A stretch of 64,000 nucleotides of DNA from a bacterium (GTDB lineage Bacteria; Vulcanimicrobiota; Vulcanimicrobiia; Vulcanimicrobiales; SCRA01). The stretch covers positions 130,456 to 194,455 of the forward strand of contig SCRI01000086.1 of the NCBI GenBank assembly GCA_004298675.1, given 5' to 3'. Of the stretch, positions 41,329-49,527 are shown in pieces. The translations under genes were made by a program, and so were the position numbers. The notes beneath the pieces are model-generated. The model was not told the DNA's origin, did no database searches, and was given only the letters and a program-made list of their open reading frames with translations. Positions within the stretch are counted from its first letter, which is position 1; each line of letters starts with the position of its first letter.

Positions 41329-42546
41329 ATGCTTGATGAACTTCGAAATGCGGTTCAAGAAGCCAACGCCCTCTACTTTGTGACATTGTTGCGAGCGGAT
41401 GACGCTGGCGCTCGGCGTCCGGACGACACGACCGAGCCATCGATTGTCGCCCCGGCGACGTACGCGGCGATCCCTGGGGTCCCTAACAGCGGCGGCCCTC
41501 GCGTCAATCGCGTTCGGACGCACGACCGCGCTGAGGCCCGGACCGTCCTAAGCTCAACCGGTGCTGAAGCCCACCGCCATAAGCTTGCCCTCCGCGATGC
41601 CCTCGCGGAAGACCCGGCACTTCCCTTCCCACGTGTTCACGTCGAAGGCGCGGTCGATCTCAAGGGAAAGGGCAGGCGCCCATGGGCGCTCGACATACTC
41701 GACCTTCCGCACGGCGGCTCTGATACGTATCTGCGGTGGACGAGCGAGTGGAGTGAGTTTGACCCGTTTGTCATGGGGTTCGGCCAGCTCGATCTGCGCG
41801 ACGATGCTACGAGGATCTACCAGCGTTGCATCCACATGCTCCTCGTGGGCGGCTGGGCGTCGTACTATCGCGCTGCGGCTCGGATACCACGCACTCTAAG
41901 CTCTAGCATTGAAGGCATCACGATCCTGCCCAACGATACGGCCGACGACCCTCTCGTCACGTACAAAACGCAACGTAGCGATCCTCTCATCAAGGGCACC
42001 ATCGGTCTCCCTGAGGGAATGAAACCCAAAAAGAAAGACAAAGATAAGCTCAGCGCTGAAGGCCTTGGGGATATTCCGGGTAAGCACCCTACGTCGAAGG
42101 TGCTCATTGACTACGCGGTTGCCAAGACGACGATCAGCTTCGCTGGATTGCGCCAAATCCGCTTCGCTGAAAATGGCGGGCGTTCACACGAACGTGACCT
42201 CGCTGGCCGAACCGTTGCAGCTGCGCTAGGCTTATTGATGCACGAGCTTGTTCAGCGGCACGGCTATTACTTGCGCTCTGGCTGCTCCCTAGTGCCAATC
42301 TTAGGTAAAACGTCTCGAGTACTTGTCGGTGCCGACGGCCGGGAATCTGCATTACCGTGGGATCAGGATGCACGTCCGCGTTTGACCATCGCGAGGGAAC
42401 TCTACGTTGCCGCTGTGCAGGCCGCCGAGGGAACGGGTCTGCAATTCGACCCGGCGCGGACGTTGCATGCGGACCGTAACCTTAACGATGCCGTCTCCCA
42501 TTCTACGCGTTTCGAGCGCGTCGACGAAGATGAGGGGGTCGCATGA
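41329..42546 (+). CDS. cas7: Csb1/Cas7u-like protein (type I-G/I-U backbone subunit candidate)
   Basis: 405 aa. The call rests on position (first gene, immediately upstream of csb2) and loose similarity to the GSU0053 family pattern as I remember it (APATYA near the N-terminus; LRQIRF ... AAALGLL near the C-terminus). It needs an HMM check. Confidence 0.6.
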   Translation: MLDELRNAVQEANALYFVTLLRADDAGARRPDDTTEPSIVAPATYAAIPGVPNSGGPRVNRVRTHDRAEARTVLSSTGAEAHRHKLALRDALAEDPALPFPRVHVEGAVDLKGKGRRPWALDILDLPHGGSDTYLRWTSEWSEFDPFVMGFGQLDLRDDATRIYQRCIHMLLVGGWASYYRAAARIPRTLSSSIEGITILPNDTADDPLVTYKTQRSDPLIKGTIGLPEGMKPKKKDKDKLSAEGLGDIPGKHPTSKVLIDYAVAKTTISFAGLRQIRFAENGGRSHERDLAGRTVAAALGLLMHELVQRHGYYLRSGCSLVPILGKTSRVLVGADGRESALPWDQDARPRLTIARELYVAAVQAAEGTGLQFDPARTLHADRNLNDAVSHSTRFERVDEDEGVA

Positions 42547-43988
42547 CGACGATTGCCGCCCGTTTCCTCTCGAATCGATACGTAGCGCGGCGCTCCGACG
42601 ATCTGGCATCGGCGGAATGGCCCCCTAGCCCCGATCGCCTCTATCAGGCGCTCGTCAATGCGGCCTCACGGCTCGACGTGGAAAGAGGGAAGGCGCGGGC
42701 GTGGCTCGAGTGGCTATCTGGGCAACCGGCGCCGACAATCGTCGCTGTCCCGCAAGTACAGGAGCGCACAAGACACCGACGTTATGACCCCCGTAACGCC
42801 GAGACTCGGCGGCAGGTCGTCGAGCAGGGGCGCAAGCACGTCGTCACCTTGATCGACCAGCGTCAAGATCTGATCGATCTCGTCGATACGCCGCTCGCGC
42901 ACCCCCTCGTCATCTACCACTACGCAGACCGCGTTCCTGACGACCTGATTAGTGTCGCCGATCGCGTTGCCGCGAACGTAGGCTACCTAGGTACGAGCGA
43001 ATCCCCCGTACTGCTACGACTTGCCGAACCCATAGTCGGCACCGATCATCGCACCTTCGTTCCCGATGATGACGGGGACCTGATACTGCCGACGCCGTAT
43101 CCAAATCGCCTTGGTGACCTTGACGCGATGTTCGCTGATGCCTATCGGCCGGACCGCCCAGTCTGGGCACCATCGCTGCGTATCGACGCGCGGCGTACGC
43201 GCTATGCAATCGTCGAGAATCGCAAGTCTAGACCCCGAAGTGGCGATTACGAAGATCTCGTCGCACTTGCGTTCACCGTTGCGCCGAACGTCGATTCCCG
43301 GTTCTTCCCGGCCTTCGTCGCCGCGGTGCGTGCAGCGTACCTTCGCCGGCTTCCCGATGGGGTTCACGGGATGCTCTCAGGTCACGATCATACCGCGCCG
43401 GATCCGAGCTCTACGGCATACCCCGGTGCGCATGCTGCGTTTCTACCGCTTGCCGACGTCAACATGCCGTATGCGAGCTCGCGACTCCGTGGCATCGCCC
43501 TGGCTCTACCGTATGCAATGGGCTATGACCCCCGCCGACAAGCGATAGCCGCCTTCGATATCGATCACATCGTTGTCGCTGGCAGCAAGTACGAGCTGAC
43601 GCCGGTCATCCCTCTCGACCGCGAGTTCGAGGCAACCAGACTCGCACGTTACAGTCGCGTTGGCCGGACCTGGGCGACGCTGACGCCCATTCGTCTCTGG
43701 AAGATGCCCAATCGTAATGGGGGCGATGTTCCGGCGCTAGTCGCGGAGGCCATCCAGCAGACCGGCTACCCGGAACCGCGGTGGATCGAGATTGGTCCTG
43801 CGCCGTATGTGCCCGGCGCGCTCCACGTCACCGCTTACCGTCATCGATTCGAAAAGCCGTACTGGCTCGTTCACGCCCGATTCCAGTTTAGTGAGCCCGT
43901 GCGCGGACCGATGCTCGTTGGGCGAGGACGCTCGGTTGGTTTCGGCTTCTGCGGACTGGTGAACAGCGCAGGGATGCGGGTCGCGTGA
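42543..43988 (+). CDS. csb2: Csb2 (Cas5u-Cas6 fusion, type I-G/I-U)
   Basis: 481 aa. The N-terminal FLSNRYVARRSDDLASAEWPPSPDRLYQALVNAA matches the Csb2 signature (GRYHA ... EWPPxPxRLFxALV) as I remember it. The start forms an ATGA overlap with the upstream gene. Confidence 0.75.
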   Translation: MTTIAARFLSNRYVARRSDDLASAEWPPSPDRLYQALVNAASRLDVERGKARAWLEWLSGQPAPTIVAVPQVQERTRHRRYDPRNAETRRQVVEQGRKHVVTLIDQRQDLIDLVDTPLAHPLVIYHYADRVPDDLISVADRVAANVGYLGTSESPVLLRLAEPIVGTDHRTFVPDDDGDLILPTPYPNRLGDLDAMFADAYRPDRPVWAPSLRIDARRTRYAIVENRKSRPRSGDYEDLVALAFTVAPNVDSRFFPAFVAAVRAAYLRRLPDGVHGMLSGHDHTAPDPSSTAYPGAHAAFLPLADVNMPYASSRLRGIALALPYAMGYDPRRQAIAAFDIDHIVVAGSKYELTPVIPLDREFEATRLARYSRVGRTWATLTPIRLWKMPNRNGGDVPALVAEAIQQTGYPEPRWIEIGPAPYVPGALHVTAYRHRFEKPYWLVHARFQFSEPVRGPMLVGRGRSVGFGFCGLVNSAGMRVA

Positions 43989-46816
43989 GGTTCGAAGACT
44001 TCTTCAGCGCCGTGACCGGGAACACGCCGTTCGACTGGCAGCGTCGGCTTGCCGATCAGGTCACGCAGAACGATCCAGCACGCGTGAGCTGGCCAGACCT
44101 GATCGAGCTTCCTACTTCGGCAGGGAAGACGTCGATCCAACTCATCGCGGCGTATGCGCTCGCGGTGCACCCGAACGCACATCGTCGGATCGTCTACGTT
44201 ATCGACAGGCGTACCGTCGCCGACGATGCCTACGAGACCGCGCATATTCTCCGGGAACGGCTCAGGCGGGGCGATCCTGCCCTGGCCCCGTTTGCCGCTT
44301 CTCTTCGTTACAATGTCGGTCTGAAGTCCACGGAACCCTTGCTTGAGACACATCTCCTCCGCGGAGGTCTCGGAGAGCCGTTGGCGCGATTACGGTCCCC
44401 AATCGCGCCAACGATCCTCGTTGGAACAGTAGATCAGCTCGGGTCGCGACTTTTGTTTCGCGGTTACGGTGTCAGCGAACGCATGCGTCCGGTCGCGGCA
44501 GGACTACTCGCCTACGATACGCTCTGGATCGTCGATGAGGCACATCTTTCCCCGGCCTTCTTGGACACCCTACGTGCCGTGCGTGCATCGGTCTTGGCAT
44601 CTCCACTTCCGCACGATCGTCCACTGCACCTCATTGAGATGACTGCTACCCCGCGCAAGCGCGCCGGGCGAACCGTCTTTGCACTGGGGAGACCCGACGA
44701 TCGCATCGCTCAGAGAATCAGCTGCTCTAAGCCCGCGTTGATTCGTGATCCAATTCAGACAAGAGATCTGGTTGCTGCGTTCGCAGCGCTCGTCGAGGAA
44801 GCGCTGGGATCAAAATCCTTTCGGCGCCTCGGCGTGATCGTGAACCGAGTAGGACTGGCGCGCGAGATTTTCGATGCGCTTCGAAAGGGCGGGTCGAAAG
44901 ATAGCGCAGACTATCTCTTATTCATCGGTCCGATTCGTCCGTACGATCGTAAGTTGCTCTACGAGCGTTCTGCCGCCGTGTCTCTCAAGGCGCAGTCGCA
45001 CGAGCGACGCGCCCACCCGGTAGTCGCCATCTGCACGCAGACGATTGAGGTCGGAGCAGACATCGACTTTGATGCCTTATTCGTCCAAGCGGCACCCCTC
45101 GACGCGCTGCGTCAGCGCTTCGGTCGTCATAATCGGCTTGGCTCGAGCAACGGCACACTTGCGATTATTGTGCCAGAACTGCTCGAAAAAGTGGAGCCCA
45201 TCTACGGAGATGCCACGCAGCGGACGATACGGTGGTTATGTTCGGTCGCCCAGAGGGCGTCATCGGGGCAGAAGGTCGATTTCGGCATAGCCGCCATGGA
45301 CGATGTAGTGGGCCGACTCTCACCGCAAGAGCTTGAGGCGCTGTGCAGTTCGGGACCACTCGGCGAGCCGCTACATGTGCAACACGCGCGAAACCTCGCT
45401 CGCTCCACCAGCCCATGCATCGACGAGCCTGATGTCAGTATCTTCCTTCACGGAGAGCCTGCGCGTGCCGATGTCCAGCTAGTCTGGCGGGAACTCCCCA
45501 AGGACTACGATATCGGTAGGCTCTCGGAAGAGGTCAAGGATGATCTGTCGGCCGCACCACCTTGTGCTGGGGAAATGCTAAGTATCCCGGTCTATGCGGC
45601 GCGTTCCTTCCTTGAGGGTGAGAAGGCGGACGTCGCCGATGTTCCGGCAGAGTTGGAATCCACGCGTCAGGGCCGCAGGCACGGGGTTAAGGCAATCCGG
45701 TGGTCACCGGATAAGGACCAGATTGCCGCTGTTGAGCCTGATCAGATTCGACCCGGAGATACCCTCGTGTTACCCCTAAGTGCCGGGGGCTCCGATGAGT
45801 TCGGCTGGTCCCCTGATCGTATGGACTCTGTTTCAGACCTTTCCTTAGCGGCATACTTCGCGAAAAACGGAGACAGAGTTCGAGCCGCGCGAATGAGAGT
45901 CTTGGTTGCATTTGACCCTGAGGATGGTCGCACGGTCACCGAGCGCGTCGACGATGCTCTCACGAACAAGTGTGAAAGCGGTGACGGCTTGCTCGAGCGA
46001 GAGATCGCACGTGTACTGATGCAAGTGCCCAAGGACCAACGAACGATCCAGCTGATCCAAGCCGCAGGCGGCAACGAACATGCGTGGGTAACCTGGCGCG
46101 AGTCGGTGCGCGACGACGAAGATCCAAACGCCGACGCTAGTTCTTTCACGGTCCGCGTGGGGCTCACCGACCACTTAGAGCACGTTGCCGCCCGCGCACT
46201 CGATCTTGCGCAGCGCTGCGGGTTGCTCAAGGAGCTGTGTGAAAAGCTCTCTCTGGCTGGCCTTCTGCATGACCTCGGCAAGGCCGACGTTCGCTTCCAG
46301 ACGGTACTTCGCGGGGGCGATCTCATCGGTGCGCTTCGAGCCGAAGGCCAGACGGAGAACTTGCTGGCGAAGGGCCTTCGGCGATTTGCGGGAGGGGTCC
46401 AGCGTAGCGTTGCCGTTCCAATGTCTGAACGCTGGTTCCCTGGCATGCGCCACGAAGCGATCTCCGTGGCCATGGCTGGTGTCCAAGACCCGTTGGTCCG
46501 TCACCTCATCGGTAGTCATCACGGCTTTGGACGACCGACGTTCCCGACGATTGAGGATGCGGCGCCGCGTACAGTCCGTGCTCGAATCAACGGAGTCGCA
46601 TACGAAGCTTCGAGCGACCATCATCTCAATGCGAGCGGCTGGGATGAGCAATTTGCCGCGTTGCTCGACGATTACGGAATATGGGGCCTCGCGTATCTAG
46701 AGGCAATCTTACGCCTTGCCGACCATCGATGTTCTAGAGAAGAAGAGAGCGGGTCTGTGTTGGGGCTCCCAGAGCGGGATGGAGGAAACTCGTGCAGCTT
46801 GAGCTCGACGGTCTAG
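43985..46816 (+). CDS. cas3: Cas3 helicase-nuclease, type I-G/I-U architecture (helicase N-terminal, HD C-terminal)
   Basis: 943 aa. It has Walker A LPTSAGKTS, DEAH box IVDEAHL, helicase C region QTIEVGADIDFD and QRFGRHNR, and a C-terminal HD domain (HLEHV ... LLHDLGKADVRFQ ... HEAIS ... GSHHG). GTGA start overlap. Confidence 0.85.
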   Translation: MRFEDFFSAVTGNTPFDWQRRLADQVTQNDPARVSWPDLIELPTSAGKTSIQLIAAYALAVHPNAHRRIVYVIDRRTVADDAYETAHILRERLRRGDPALAPFAASLRYNVGLKSTEPLLETHLLRGGLGEPLARLRSPIAPTILVGTVDQLGSRLLFRGYGVSERMRPVAAGLLAYDTLWIVDEAHLSPAFLDTLRAVRASVLASPLPHDRPLHLIEMTATPRKRAGRTVFALGRPDDRIAQRISCSKPALIRDPIQTRDLVAAFAALVEEALGSKSFRRLGVIVNRVGLAREIFDALRKGGSKDSADYLLFIGPIRPYDRKLLYERSAAVSLKAQSHERRAHPVVAICTQTIEVGADIDFDALFVQAAPLDALRQRFGRHNRLGSSNGTLAIIVPELLEKVEPIYGDATQRTIRWLCSVAQRASSGQKVDFGIAAMDDVVGRLSPQELEALCSSGPLGEPLHVQHARNLARSTSPCIDEPDVSIFLHGEPARADVQLVWRELPKDYDIGRLSEEVKDDLSAAPPCAGEMLSIPVYAARSFLEGEKADVADVPAELESTRQGRRHGVKAIRWSPDKDQIAAVEPDQIRPGDTLVLPLSAGGSDEFGWSPDRMDSVSDLSLAAYFAKNGDRVRAARMRVLVAFDPEDGRTVTERVDDALTNKCESGDGLLEREIARVLMQVPKDQRTIQLIQAAGGNEHAWVTWRESVRDDEDPNADASSFTVRVGLTDHLEHVAARALDLAQRCGLLKELCEKLSLAGLLHDLGKADVRFQTVLRGGDLIGALRAEGQTENLLAKGLRRFAGGVQRSVAVPMSERWFPGMRHEAISVAMAGVQDPLVRHLIGSHHGFGRPTFPTIEDAAPRTVRARINGVAYEASSDHHLNASGWDEQFAALLDDYGIWGLAYLEAILRLADHRCSREEESGSVLGLPERDGGNSCSLSSTV

Positions 46817-47814
46817 ACGGCTCGAATCCTCTTGCATTCCTAGCGGCCCTTGGCGTCCTTGCGACCGTTGGAGGGAGACTCGCGTGGGTGGAGCACGGAG
46901 CGGCCTGGAGGCCGATAATCACCGAGTTGTCAAGCGATATAAGTATGGAGCAACTCGCCGACGTTCTCTATTCGCGGCTCCAGGCGGTTCCGTTCGCCTA
47001 CACACTCGCCCAACCAGGCGAAGCGCCATACGAAGATTTTGCGACGCGAAAGAAGGACCCCGCGACGACGACGGTTCGCCTTGTTGACGGCGAGACGGCC
47101 TTTCGTGCCGCAATCGAACGGGCGGCGATTGAGTGCCAAAATAGCGGCGATTGCGCCGAGCTCGAACGACTCGCGGCCCATACGTGTGTGCTCGGCGTAC
47201 GCAAGGGTAGCACGACGGACGTGCGGTCCGTCTCCGGGCCCGTGCGTTACCTTTCCAATATCCGTGCCATCGTGGAAGCGACGACACGTGAGGACATCGC
47301 ACGCGCGTTGTTCGAGCGTTGGCAGTATTATGCGGGCGAAGTAAAGCGTAAGAAAGAACGAGGTAGGATAAAGGGCCCAGGAAAGCGACCGAAGCTCGGC
47401 CTCGATCCCCGGGCCGTTGTCGAGAATGTTCCCGTTAACATCGCCGGCCTCGGTTCGATCTCCGAACTTGGCGCTGAACGACTCGCGCTCGAGGGATTGC
47501 GCGCCCTTCCCACTAGCATCCACGGTGGGAGGCTTGTTACCCGCGGTTACCATTATAGGCGGGGTAGGGCTTACGCATTTCGCTGGGTGCTCTCGCGAAG
47601 CCCTCGCTCGCTGCGAACGAGCTCGGAGCTTCTGGCGAGCGCGCCATTGGACTTTAGCCCCGATGGCCGAGATCAAGGGCGCGCAGCCCTGTTGTGCTGG
47701 ATGCGAGATCTCGGGGTTGCCGCGTTGTTCGAGTCCCGGCTCCGGTACTATGGGCAAGGGTACAAGCAGTTACTTCCGGCGGTAGCGATAGCGGAAGCGG
47801 GTTCGAGCGCTTAG
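46792..47814 (+). CDS. short Csx17/Cas8u-like protein (large-subunit candidate)
   Basis: 340 aa with a GTG start 25 nt inside the cas3 3' end. The N-terminal LDGLDGSNPLAFLAALGVLATV resembles the Csx17 N-terminal motif (GC..PLASYLKALGVLRL) as I remember it. I recognise nothing in the rest. Confidence 0.5.
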   Translation: MQLELDGLDGSNPLAFLAALGVLATVGGRLAWVEHGAAWRPIITELSSDISMEQLADVLYSRLQAVPFAYTLAQPGEAPYEDFATRKKDPATTTVRLVDGETAFRAAIERAAIECQNSGDCAELERLAAHTCVLGVRKGSTTDVRSVSGPVRYLSNIRAIVEATTREDIARALFERWQYYAGEVKRKKERGRIKGPGKRPKLGLDPRAVVENVPVNIAGLGSISELGAERLALEGLRALPTSIHGGRLVTRGYHYRRGRAYAFRWVLSRSPRSLRTSSELLASAPLDFSPDGRDQGRAALLCWMRDLGVAALFESRLRYYGQGYKQLLPAVAIAEAGSSA

Positions 47815-47981
47815 GTAATGGAGAGTATAACCGGAGGCGCTCGATCCCCGGTTTTGCGCGGAAAATCACTGGGATCCACCGTGAAATGCACCTTGAAAGC
47901 TGAAAAGCAAAGTCGCCAGGGAATACCCGCTCGAAAAATGAGGCTCATTTCGAGACGGCACCAGGCGGTTTAATACCTGCC
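47815..47981 (+). promoter_or_regulatory. CRISPR leader candidate
   Basis: A 167-nt AT-richer non-coding stretch between the csx17-like stop and the first, perfectly conserved repeat. Degenerate repeats lie at the far end of the array. It contains a 7-bp inverted repeat, CTCGAAA-N11-TTTCGAG (47930-47954). Confidence 0.6.
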
Positions 47982-49465
47982 GTTTCCGCGCCCACTAGGG
48001 CGCGGCTCTGTTGAAGGTTGGCGATAGAGATGATCTCGTCGCCGTTCGATTCGGTTTCCGCGCCCACTAGGGCGCGGCTCTGTTGAAGGCAATTGAAAGC
48101 GACGCATTTGGATTCGATGACCTATGTTTCCGCGCCCACTAGGGCGCGGCTCTGTTGAAGGTTATTCGATGGGGCTAACACGACGGAGATCCTTGGGTTT
48201 CCGCGCCCACTAGGGCGCGGCTCTGTTGAAGGTACGAAACTCGCGTCGTTGCACTCGAAACCGTCGAGTTTCCGCGCCCACTAGGGCGCGGCTCTGTTGA
48301 AGGGCGCTCGATTGGCGCGTACGTTCCGTGATTCTCGAGTTTCCGCGCCCACTAGGGCGCGGCTCTGTTGAAGGGATCATCTATGGCTGTGGGCTTCTTG
48401 TCCTCGGCTGAGTTTCCGCGCCCACTAGGGCGCGGCTCTGTTGAAGGCCTGCCCCGATCTTGCGGTCGAAGAAATGGCGGTCGTTTCCGCGCCCACTAGG
48501 GCGCGGCTCTGTTGAAGGCGCTGCTTGCTGCTGGCGTTATAGATAACATGTCGCGTTTCCGCGCCCACTAGGGCGCGGCTCTGTTGAAGGACATAGAGAC
48601 GATTACCGGTGGTTCCGTCAATGCGGTTTCCGCGCCCACTAGGGCGCGGCTCTGTTGAAGGCGGTCCAGATCGAGCGTTTCCCCGATCTTGACCATAATT
48701 TCCGCGCCCACTAGGGCGCGGCTCTGTTGAAGGTGGAAGTGCGGGCGAGTCTGGGTCACGGAAGGAGCAGTTTCCGCGCCCACTAGGGCGCGGCTCTGTT
48801 GAAGGATCCAATCGCGCTGATCCCCGGCCGCGACGAGGTCATGTTTCCGCGCCCACTAGGGCGCGGCTCTGTTGAAGGATCGCGCCCACCGGAACGACGT
48901 CGAGCGGAAAGGTCGTTTCCGCGCCCACTAGGGCGCGGCTCTGTTGAAGGTCGGAGATCCACAGGGCCTTGGTCCGTCCGTGTGCGTTTCCGCGTCCGCT
49001 AGGGCGCGGCTCTGTTGAAGGTTTGGCAGCTGGCGCATCAGCATCCCTGTCGCAACGTGTTTTCGCGCCCACTAGGGCGCGGCTCTGTTGAAGGAGGTGA
49101 TGGCCGAAGTTGAGCGTGCCGCTTCCGGTCGGTTTCCGCGTCCACTAGGGCGCGGCTCTGTTGAAGCGAGGAAGAGTTTCTCGCGCACATCGTTCTGCCG
49201 GACGAGTTTCCGCGTCTACTGGCGCGCGGTTCTGTAGAAGCCCGTACCCGTATACTAACCAATGGCTCACCATCACGTCCTGGTGTTTCCGCGTCTACTG
49301 GGACGCGGCTCTGTTGAAGCCCGGAAGCTCGGTGCGCGTTGTTCTTCAAGGTGATGGTTTCCTTGCCCGCTAGGGCGCGGCTCTGTTGAAGCGCTGTCAC
49401 GTCGGTCGACGCGTTGATGTCGCGGATGCATTTCCGCGTCCGCTGGAGCGCGGCTCTGTTGAAGG
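47982..49465 (+). CRISPR. CRISPR array, 21 repeats / 20 spacers
   Basis: The 36-nt repeat is GTTTCCGCGCCCACTAGGGCGCGGCTCTGTTGAAGG. Copies start at 47982, 48054, 48126, 48197, 48268, 48339, 48412, 48483, 48555, 48626, 48698, 48770, 48843, 48915, 48986, 49059, 49132, 49206, 49285, 49357 and 49430. Spacers are 35-38 nt, with one of 43 nt. Repeats 1-14 are identical except for a G-to-A first base in repeat 11. Repeats 15-21 carry 1-7 substitutions. The internal hairpin is CCGCGCCC-ACTA-GGGCGCGG. Confidence 0.95.
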
Positions 49466-49506
49466 TAGTGGCCGAGCGCCTCCGACTCCCGCTGCGGATG
49501 GCAGGA

Positions 49507-49527
49507 GTTGTCGAGTCATCAGACAAC
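49507..49527. promoter_or_regulatory. candidate GntR-type operator, copy 2
   Basis: A perfect palindrome, GTTGTC-gagtcatca-GACAAC, ending 13 nt before the SDR ATG at 49541. Confidence 0.5.

Follow-up and report, generated by a model that had tools for sequence, protein, structure and literature searches.

Is an open reading frame (ORF) of only 340 amino acids (aa) in the large-subunit position of a type I CRISPR-Cas operon a broken gene or a complete protein? This question is raised by a locus on contig SCRI01000086.1 (assembly GCA_004298675.1), of which a stretch of 64 kb, called the window in the following, was analyzed as a whole. The locus is a type I-G (formerly I-U) CRISPR-Cas system, which carries csb2, cas7g and a cas3g gene encoding a protein with a C-terminal HD domain. 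The short ORF, the product of which we call X, follows directly after cas3g (Table 1). An earlier interpretation of this DNA (the sequence-only reading) had regarded X as a half-length Csx17-like large subunit and had left the choice between a Cascade without a small subunit, a fused minimal large subunit and a truncated, inactive gene. Here, we found that by profile match and alignment X can be classified as an intact, complete and slightly oversized member of a catalogued short type I-G family. Probably, it is a Cas8g that consists of the N-terminal domain only, occupies the large-subunit position of a cas7g-csb2-cas3g-X variant and tethers Cas3g to the backbone of Cas7, Csb2 and CRISPR RNA (crRNA).

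X scored 115.4 bits against the NCBIfam model NF049934 (adjac_Cas3_IG, cut-off 65), the full name of which is 'type I-G CRISPR-associated protein, Cas3-extension family'. This profile comprises 299 positions and its match on X falls in two stretches, which are divided by insertions. The PADLOC model PDLC01514 ('Cas8g; CAS-I-U; effector_LS', 287 positions) recognized X with an E-value of 1.2e-32 and no other Cas8g model of this collection matched. Pfam holds no family for X. The sequence-only reading had suggested an alignment with the Csx17 profile TIGR04113, but neither this NCBIfam model nor that of Cas8g2 (TIGR04106) matched X even at E≤1.

To place the length of X, we compared it with its homologues. 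The 14 word-indexed homologues measure 298–376 aa, and the six closest of them (304–313 aa) share 45–51% identity with X and cover 97–98% of it. Identity to most family members is only 24–34%. An exhaustive profile search yielded 2290 representative clusters (50% identity) at E≤1e-3, 869 of which were found at E≤1e-30. Among the matches listed (n = 160), 136 family proteins did not reach 400 aa (median 314 aa), and 14 had 1200 aa or more. In an alignment of 118 unfused members the median length was 312 aa. X aligns end to end with its 117 relatives in this set and all conserved blocks are there (W32, W39/P41, W177/Y179, G227-A228-L231-A232, W265/P266/W268). The N-terminal motif G-x-NPL-x-FLAALG and the W-P-x-W block are common to X and the members of NF049934, which also resemble each other in length and in their place immediately behind cas3g. 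Since about 300–320 aa is the family norm and since X can be aligned with its relatives from end to end, the protein is not truncated. A length of about 340 aa, which the sequence-only reading had taken for an anomaly, is thus normal among the homologues. Nor is there room for a frameshifted continuation of the gene, which had also been considered, because the first CRISPR repeat follows only 167 nucleotides (nt) after its stop codon.

The basic description of the gene could be confirmed from the sequence. X starts at a GTG inside the 3' end of cas3, and since the cas3 stop codon (TAG) occupies positions 46814–46816, the two genes overlap by exactly 25 nt in different frames; with respect to cas3, X is read in frame -1. 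The assigned start can be trusted because the nearest homologues begin at the equivalent residue (MPLELS.., MSLELN..). With this start, an exact-sequence look-up of the protein gave no public record. Both peptides quoted in the sequence-only reading were located in X. The N-terminal motif LDGLDGSNPLAFLAALGVLATV corresponds to residues 5–26. No other block is as strongly conserved in the family, and G10, N12, P13, F16, A18, A19 and G21 are invariant in it (alignment A1). The basic patch EVKRKKERGRIKGPGKRPK corresponds to residues 183–201. X exceeds the family median by 28 aa because of three loop insertions (residues 84–99, 184–197 and 292–298), which are located in poorly ordered loops. The second of these insertions is missing from at least 90% of the 117 homologues, even from those which are 45–51% identical to X, and the K/R-rich patch was seen in no other family member examined. 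This patch probably decorates a flexible inter-lobe loop in this lineage only, and we may speculate that it adds nucleic-acid contacts.

When we searched the PDB (177,635 distinct sequences) with the 118-sequence profile of X, the only match was chain 8b2x_M (E 0.12). This chain is the 'Type I-G CRISPR Cascade large subunit CSX17' of Thioalkalivibrio sulfidiphilus (720 aa). The matching regions were X 5–46 with Csx17 7–47, which includes the N-terminal motif, and X 221–265 with Csx17 284–328, which includes a W-P-x-W-x-x-P block. Searches with the single X sequence and with a 15-sequence profile returned nothing relevant. For a comparison at profile level, we collected 54 Csx17 sequences (median about 730 aa) from 80 metagenomic Csx17 loci. 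Seeds from the PDB alignment fragments had given fragments only, but these led to a Csx17 gene that is interrupted by an IS21 element, and from this gene the set was obtained. On one metagenomic contig (L090, 2696–8443), an IS21-family insertion (IstB plus transposase) divides the Csx17 gene into a 95-aa N-terminal ORF and a remainder of 627 aa.

Comparison of the two profiles by hhalign aligned X 1–65 with Csx17 3–66 at a score of 37.1, whereas 40 column shuffles scored 16.0 ± 2.6 (maximum 23.2). A second block paired X 240–286 with Csx17 278–324 (31.2 vs. 14.4 ± 2.3 for 40 column shuffles, maximum 19.7). A third, weak block (X 164–176, Csx17 197–209) is collinear with the other two, and the reversed-profile control scored 14.5. 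In a forced full-length alignment, X 1–340 occupies columns 3–381 of the 728 Csx17 columns. The hidden Markov model (HMM) of X matched sequences of the Csx17 set down to E 2e-6, and when the Csx17 N-terminal profile was run against the six-frame translation of the window, the frame of X was the best match. By these profile comparisons, X is homologous, in collinear order, to the first 380 or so residues of Csx17/Cas8g1, which form its N-terminal alpha/beta domain. Thus, the resemblance to Csx17 described in the sequence-only reading is real, but it is not confined to the N-terminus, as had been stated. The estimate that X has about half the length of Csx17 was correct (340 aa vs. the median given above).

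X and Csx17 belong to the same subtype and have the same role in the operon, that of a gene between or beside cas3g and the backbone genes; in both systems Cas3 carries a C-terminal HD domain. They differ in several respects. X has less than half the length of Csx17, and the usual gene order is cas7-csb2-cas3-X in X-type loci but cas3-csx17-cas7-csb2 in Csx17-type loci. X is often fused to Cas3g, whereas such a fusion was not seen for Csx17 among the loci analyzed here. Moreover, X does not contain the Cas11-like helical domain that makes up the C-terminus of Csx17.

The type I-G Cascade of Thioalkalivibrio has been studied by cryo-EM (PMC9638904). There, Cas8g has at its C-terminus a helical domain resembling Cas11, a bundle which runs along the Cas7 belly, and its N-terminal alpha/beta domain touches Cas7.1/7.2 and the crRNA in the model. 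The purified complex contained Cas3 only if Cas8g was present (PMC9638904). We calculated an AlphaFold2 (AF2) model of X from 118 sequences, which reached a mean predicted local distance difference test (pLDDT) value of 88.1 and a predicted template modelling score (pTM) of 0.90. It can be seen that X folds in the model into two alpha/beta lobes with a flexible joining loop of low pLDDT, and that there is no helical bundle. A profile of the C-terminal half of Csx17 found nothing significant in the six-frame translation of the window, nor in Cas3, Cas7, Csb2 or X. Judged by profile and model, X never contained the Cas11-like helical half or lost it long ago. The suspicion that so short a protein may lack this part has therefore been borne out. 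A Cascade without a small subunit, which the sequence-only reading had offered as one option, still stands as an inference, but it would be a property of the entire X-type variant and not of this gene; the option of a truncated and inactive gene does not agree with the family norm.

To define the genomic context of the family, we surveyed one genome per GTDB species. Confirmed relatives of X were present in at least 423 of these genomes, and the groups include Planctomycetota, Acidobacteriota, Pseudomonadota, Verrucomicrobiota, Latescibacterota and Chloroflexota. We retrieved 80 loci and recovered the X gene in 77 of them. In all 77, X follows directly after cas3g or is fused to the C-terminus of its product. 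Gene order could be scored in the 54 loci with enough upstream sequence and was cas7-csb2-cas3-X in 38, cas3-X-cas7-csb2 in six and cas7-csb2-cas3X in four. Contigs of the closest metagenomic relatives have the same operon order as the window. Hence, the question whether the short form is conserved in related genomes can be answered in the affirmative: it is widespread and its synteny is kept. Apart from X, the related loci contained no other conserved candidate for a large subunit, and the only other recurrent genes encode Cas4g/Cas1g (NF049935) and Cas2.

A fused Cas3g-X was found in 13 of the 77 loci, and 12 of these fusions were confirmed by domain envelope. The survey calls come from longest-ORF gene models, but independent gene calls confirm the fusions. 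A full Cas3g and a C-terminal NF049934 domain are present in single proteins (P0024, P0038, P0056), and the family proteins of 1200 aa or more are such fusions. In a rough neighbour-joining tree, the fusions are spread over at least seven separate clades, which suggests repeated fusion or fission. A programmed -1 frameshift giving Cas3-X was considered for the window, since X is in the -1 frame, and was rejected. We do not propose a fusion of this kind because no slippery heptamer occurs in the 25-nt overlap (GTGCAGCTTGAGCTCGACGGTCTAG) and because separate, coupled genes are the majority state.

The same operon is carried by plasmids of Azotobacter chroococcum, Thermus thermophilus, Streptomyces and Methylomagnum, where X is annotated as 'hypothetical protein', and cas7-csb2-cas3 is also present on a Rhodothermus plasmid. 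For T. thermophilus SG0.5JP17-16, CRISPRone lists 'cas7, csb2gr5, cas3, cas8U1', and the same gene names are given for strain JL-18 (PMC5529391). Apparently, the X-family gene of Thermus is the one that is labelled cas8U1 there. A Mycobacterium heckeshornense locus has been described as 'csb1-csb2-cas3-hypothetical protein' (PMC10333696).

Taken together, these observations lead to the following model. X would bind Cas3g, its operon neighbor, to which it is covalently fused in about one locus in six. It would then dock the Cas3g-X unit on the crRNA-bound Cas7g filament, which is capped by Csb2. In this view, X is a large subunit reduced to the part that attaches to the head of the Cas7 filament and retains Cas3g. 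Probably, it also helps to recognize the protospacer adjacent motif (PAM) and the target. The complex would have no small-subunit 'belly'. Translation of X may be coupled to that of cas3 by the 25-nt overlap and the strong Shine-Dalgarno sequence. That X holds Cas3g is suggested by its invariable adjacency to cas3g, its repeated fusion beside the HD domain and its homology to a Cas8g that tethers Cas3. The bridging proposed for X is the role that has been shown experimentally for the Cas8g of Thioalkalivibrio.

Several points weigh against this model. The homology to Csx17 is weak, as can be seen from the HMMER E-value of 0.12 against the PDB and from hhalign probabilities of 22% and 6% without secondary-structure scoring. 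It consists of two motif blocks plus collinearity, and the middle of X (residues 66–239) was not significantly aligned. A Foldseek search of the PDB, which includes the deposited Csx17 model, gave no significant match for the confident X model, and nothing below E 0.5 was found with either X model. In the literature searched, we found no experimental study of any member of the short family. The NCBI curators deliberately chose a name that refers to a 'Cas3-extension' and not to Cas8, so that X may serve Cas3 rather than Cascade. Finally, the window locus can be called no more than putatively active, since neither cas1, cas2 nor cas4 was detected in the window and its spacers had no matches.

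A more far-reaching proposal concerns the X-type variant as a whole. Its complex might be a Cascade without any Cas11-like element, in which Cas3g is a constitutive component held by an N-terminal-domain-only Cas8g, in about one-sixth of the lineages in cis as a single polypeptide. The function of the belly would be taken over by an enlarged Cas7g and Cas3g. The median length of Cas3g is about 984 aa in X-type loci (L006–L085) vs. 800 aa in Csx17-type loci (L092–L171), and the corresponding values for Cas7g are about 416 and 319 aa, so that the two proteins are longer by about 180 and 100 aa, respectively. In the Cas3g of the window, about 83 extra residues are located between the helicase and HD regions (residues about 605–725). 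These enlargements may compensate for the missing Cas11-like domain. We put this proposal forward tentatively and would at present rather bet against it. Type I-F2 (I-Fv), in which both Cas8 and Cas11 are missing, offers a precedent for a type I effector that functions with no small-subunit belly (PMC12956352). However, this subtype is unrelated, involves no X-like protein and recruits Cas3 independently of Cas8, whereas X-type loci have retained a Cas8g-derived protein tied to Cas3. If the reading without Cas11 is true, the X-type complex would represent a distinct type I effector architecture, and a compact single chain of nuclease-helicase and large subunit might be of use for genome editing.

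The main rival of the tethering model takes X for an accessory or extension domain of Cas3, which might regulate or position the HD nuclease, rather than for a subunit of Cascade; the variant would then have no large subunit at all, like I-F2. The name of the NCBI family fits this explanation, as does the fact that X is always beside Cas3g or fused to its C-terminus, where it adjoins the HD domain. Foldseek detected no Cas8 fold, and type I systems without Cas8 exist, I-F2 being an example (PMC12956352). On the other hand, X is collinearly homologous to that domain of Csx17 which has been modelled on Cas7.1/7.2 and the crRNA, and which is needed to keep Cas3 on Cascade. In addition, the PADLOC model, which is derived from the Makarova classification, labels the family as effector_LS. 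Overall, we consider a role confined to Cas3 unlikely. The two roles are not exclusive, and a service to Cas3 is compatible with bridging.

A second rival assumes that the system continues to produce a small subunit, be it through internal translation in X or in a neighboring gene, or because the domain has moved into the enlarged Cas7g or Cas3g. Internal translation of Cas11 is established for types I-B, I-C and I-D, and the extra length of the X-type Cas3g and Cas7g can also be cited for this view. However, the search for internal starts with ribosome-binding sites, which the sequence-only reading had recommended, revealed none with a usable Shine-Dalgarno sequence in the 3' half of X. The only internal candidates, codon 33 (GTG) and codon 173 (TTG), are both poorly spaced. 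No internal methionine is conserved in the family and the C-terminal third has no conserved methionine column. The X model contains no helical bundle, and the C-terminal profile of Csx17 resembles neither Cas3, Cas7 nor Csb2 of the window. McBride et al. found no conserved internal start for Cas8u2, and the Thioalkalivibrio Cascade showed no small subunit made by separate translation (PMC9638904). For these reasons, a hidden small subunit appears distinctly improbable to us. In the column of alignment A2 that holds residue 225 of X, immediately ahead of the C-terminal lobe's first helix, about 35% of the members have methionine and the window protein has glutamate; this is probably just a hydrophobic position.

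The last rival, according to which X is a decaying and inactive Csx17 that recently lost its C-terminal half by deletion or frameshift, could appeal to the 340 aa of X vs. about 730 aa of Csx17, to the match with the N-terminal half only and to a locus without cas1, cas2 and cas4, but we regard it as having next to no chance, because the family survey refuted it (the short form is normal in thousands of clusters from many phyla with synteny kept) and because X scores above a curated cut-off, aligns with its relatives over its full length, is preceded by a strong Shine-Dalgarno sequence and ends 167 nt before the array, with no remnant of the Csx17 C-terminus in any frame of the window and with all four effector genes intact.

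The features of the window locus are compiled in Table 1. The csb2 product is identical to NCBI entry TAM56388.1 ('type I-U CRISPR-associated protein Cas5/Cas6'). The Cas7g sequence is identical to TAM56387.1, which is called 'hypothetical protein EPN52_14880' although it exceeds the PF09617 threshold.

Table 1 Coordinates of the type I-G effector genes, the CRISPR array and associated elements (positions refer to the window)
Feature	Position	Strand	Basis
cas7g/csb1, 405 aa, backbone subunit	41329-42546	+	PF09617 Cas_GSU0053 37.9 bits (cut-off 25); PADLOC Cas7g E 4.9e-10
csb2, 481 aa, Cas5-Cas6 fusion, type I-G signature gene	42543-43988	+	TIGR02165 195 bits (cut-off 45); PADLOC Cas56g E 1.4e-85
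cas3g, 943 aa, helicase plus C-terminal HD nuclease	43985-46816	+	TIGR02621 cas3_GSU0051 681 bits (cut-off 400); HD at residues 727-895
Shine-Dalgarno GGAGG of X	46781-46785	+	Read from sequence; within cas3 3' end, 6 nt before GTG 46792
X, 340 aa, short Cas8g-family protein (NF049934, 'Cas3-extension family')	46792-47814	+	GTG start; HMM match, AF2 model, homology to Csx17 N-terminal half
Basic insertion VKRKKERGRIKGPG of X, residues 184-197, in flexible inter-lobe loop	47341-47382	+	Alignment A2 columns with at least 90% gaps
Probable CRISPR leader, 167 nt, from X stop to first repeat	47815-47981	+	Inferred from position and far-end repeat degeneration
CRISPR array, 21 repeats of 36 nt (GTTTCCGCGCCCACTAGGGCGCGGCTCTGTTGAAGG)	47982-49465	+	Repeat search

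The 21 repeats of the array end in GTTGAAGG, which agrees with the pattern of I-G-type 36-nt repeats (..UUGAAG(C/G)). The type I-G repeat of Thioalkalivibrio has the same length and layout, and its 8-nt handle (AUUGAAGC) resembles the 3' end of the window repeat (GUUGAAGG). The last five or six repeats are degenerate (49125–49465), and among the repeat-spacer units there is a long one of 79 nt (49199–49278). Degeneration at the distal end fits a leader at the cas-proximal end of the array. Long minus-strand 'ORFs' across the array (e.g., 49038–49526) are artefacts of translated repeats. A blastn comparison of the spacers ('distant' mode, E≤0.01) with collections of phages and plasmids gave no match, and neither a target nor a PAM was deduced.

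For the adaptation genes, which in type I-G encode a Cas4-Cas1 fusion and Cas2, we used HMMs built from 43 Cas4g/Cas1g and 14 Cas2 sequences of related loci, and these detected no cas1, cas2 or cas4 in the six-frame translation of the 64 kb. Among the related loci with enough downstream sequence, Cas4g/Cas1g and Cas2 were present in 27 of 41; in the remaining 14 they were missing, as in the window. The loci of the closest relatives (L172, L175) are also without an adjacent Cas4g/Cas1g module.

Variation in the size of the type I-G large subunit is already known, and the X family is curated in both NCBIfam and PADLOC. Three size variants have been noted, of which Csx17 is the largest (PMC9638904). 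A 'deteriorated' Cas8 has been described for Geobacter and no recognisable Cas8 for Bifidobacterium (PMC3150331). Cas8g2/Csb3/GSU0052 (TIGR04106, about 290 aa) is a short protein like X, and in the type I-G locus of a Cereibacter plasmid its gene likewise comes next to cas3g on the downstream side. Since this protein is also short, short large subunits are normal in type I-G. Csb3 was co-purified with Csb1, Csb2 and crRNA (bioRxiv 2022.08.19.504415). A homology of X to Cas8g2/Csb3 was tried and rejected, since the hhalign probabilities were 2% and 0.4% and neither profile recognizes the other family.

Relative to the sources consulted, our data make modest additions: the family maps on the N-terminal half of Csx17 and has no Cas11-like half, the Cas3g fusions have been counted and are polyphyletic, and Cas3g and Cas7g differ in size between X-type and Csx17-type loci. 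These additions concern the family and not the window, which is peculiar only for its loop insertions, the basic patch among them, and for its lack of adaptation genes. For annotation, the appropriate name of X is short type I-G Cas8g / Cas3-extension family protein and not truncated Csx17. The family is a good test case for the stabilization of R-loops without a small subunit and for the way in which Cas3 is held on the type I-G Cascade.

Two further observations were made in the surveyed loci. In several of them (L017, L019, L025, L037, L041, L050, L051, L055, L059, L065, L084), Csb2 has a length of about 780–830 aa and not of about 500 aa. All loci of the order cas3-X-cas7-csb2 with an intact csb2 ORF carry this longer form. 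A type I-G-like locus on an Actinomyces oris plasmid (NZ_CP116225.1; L088, 11768–13279) contains a gene for a 303-aa protein after cas3u, and next to it comes a distinct gene with a Cas6e-like annotation. Neither product has an NCBIfam match, and the 303-aa protein may represent a further variant of the large subunit.

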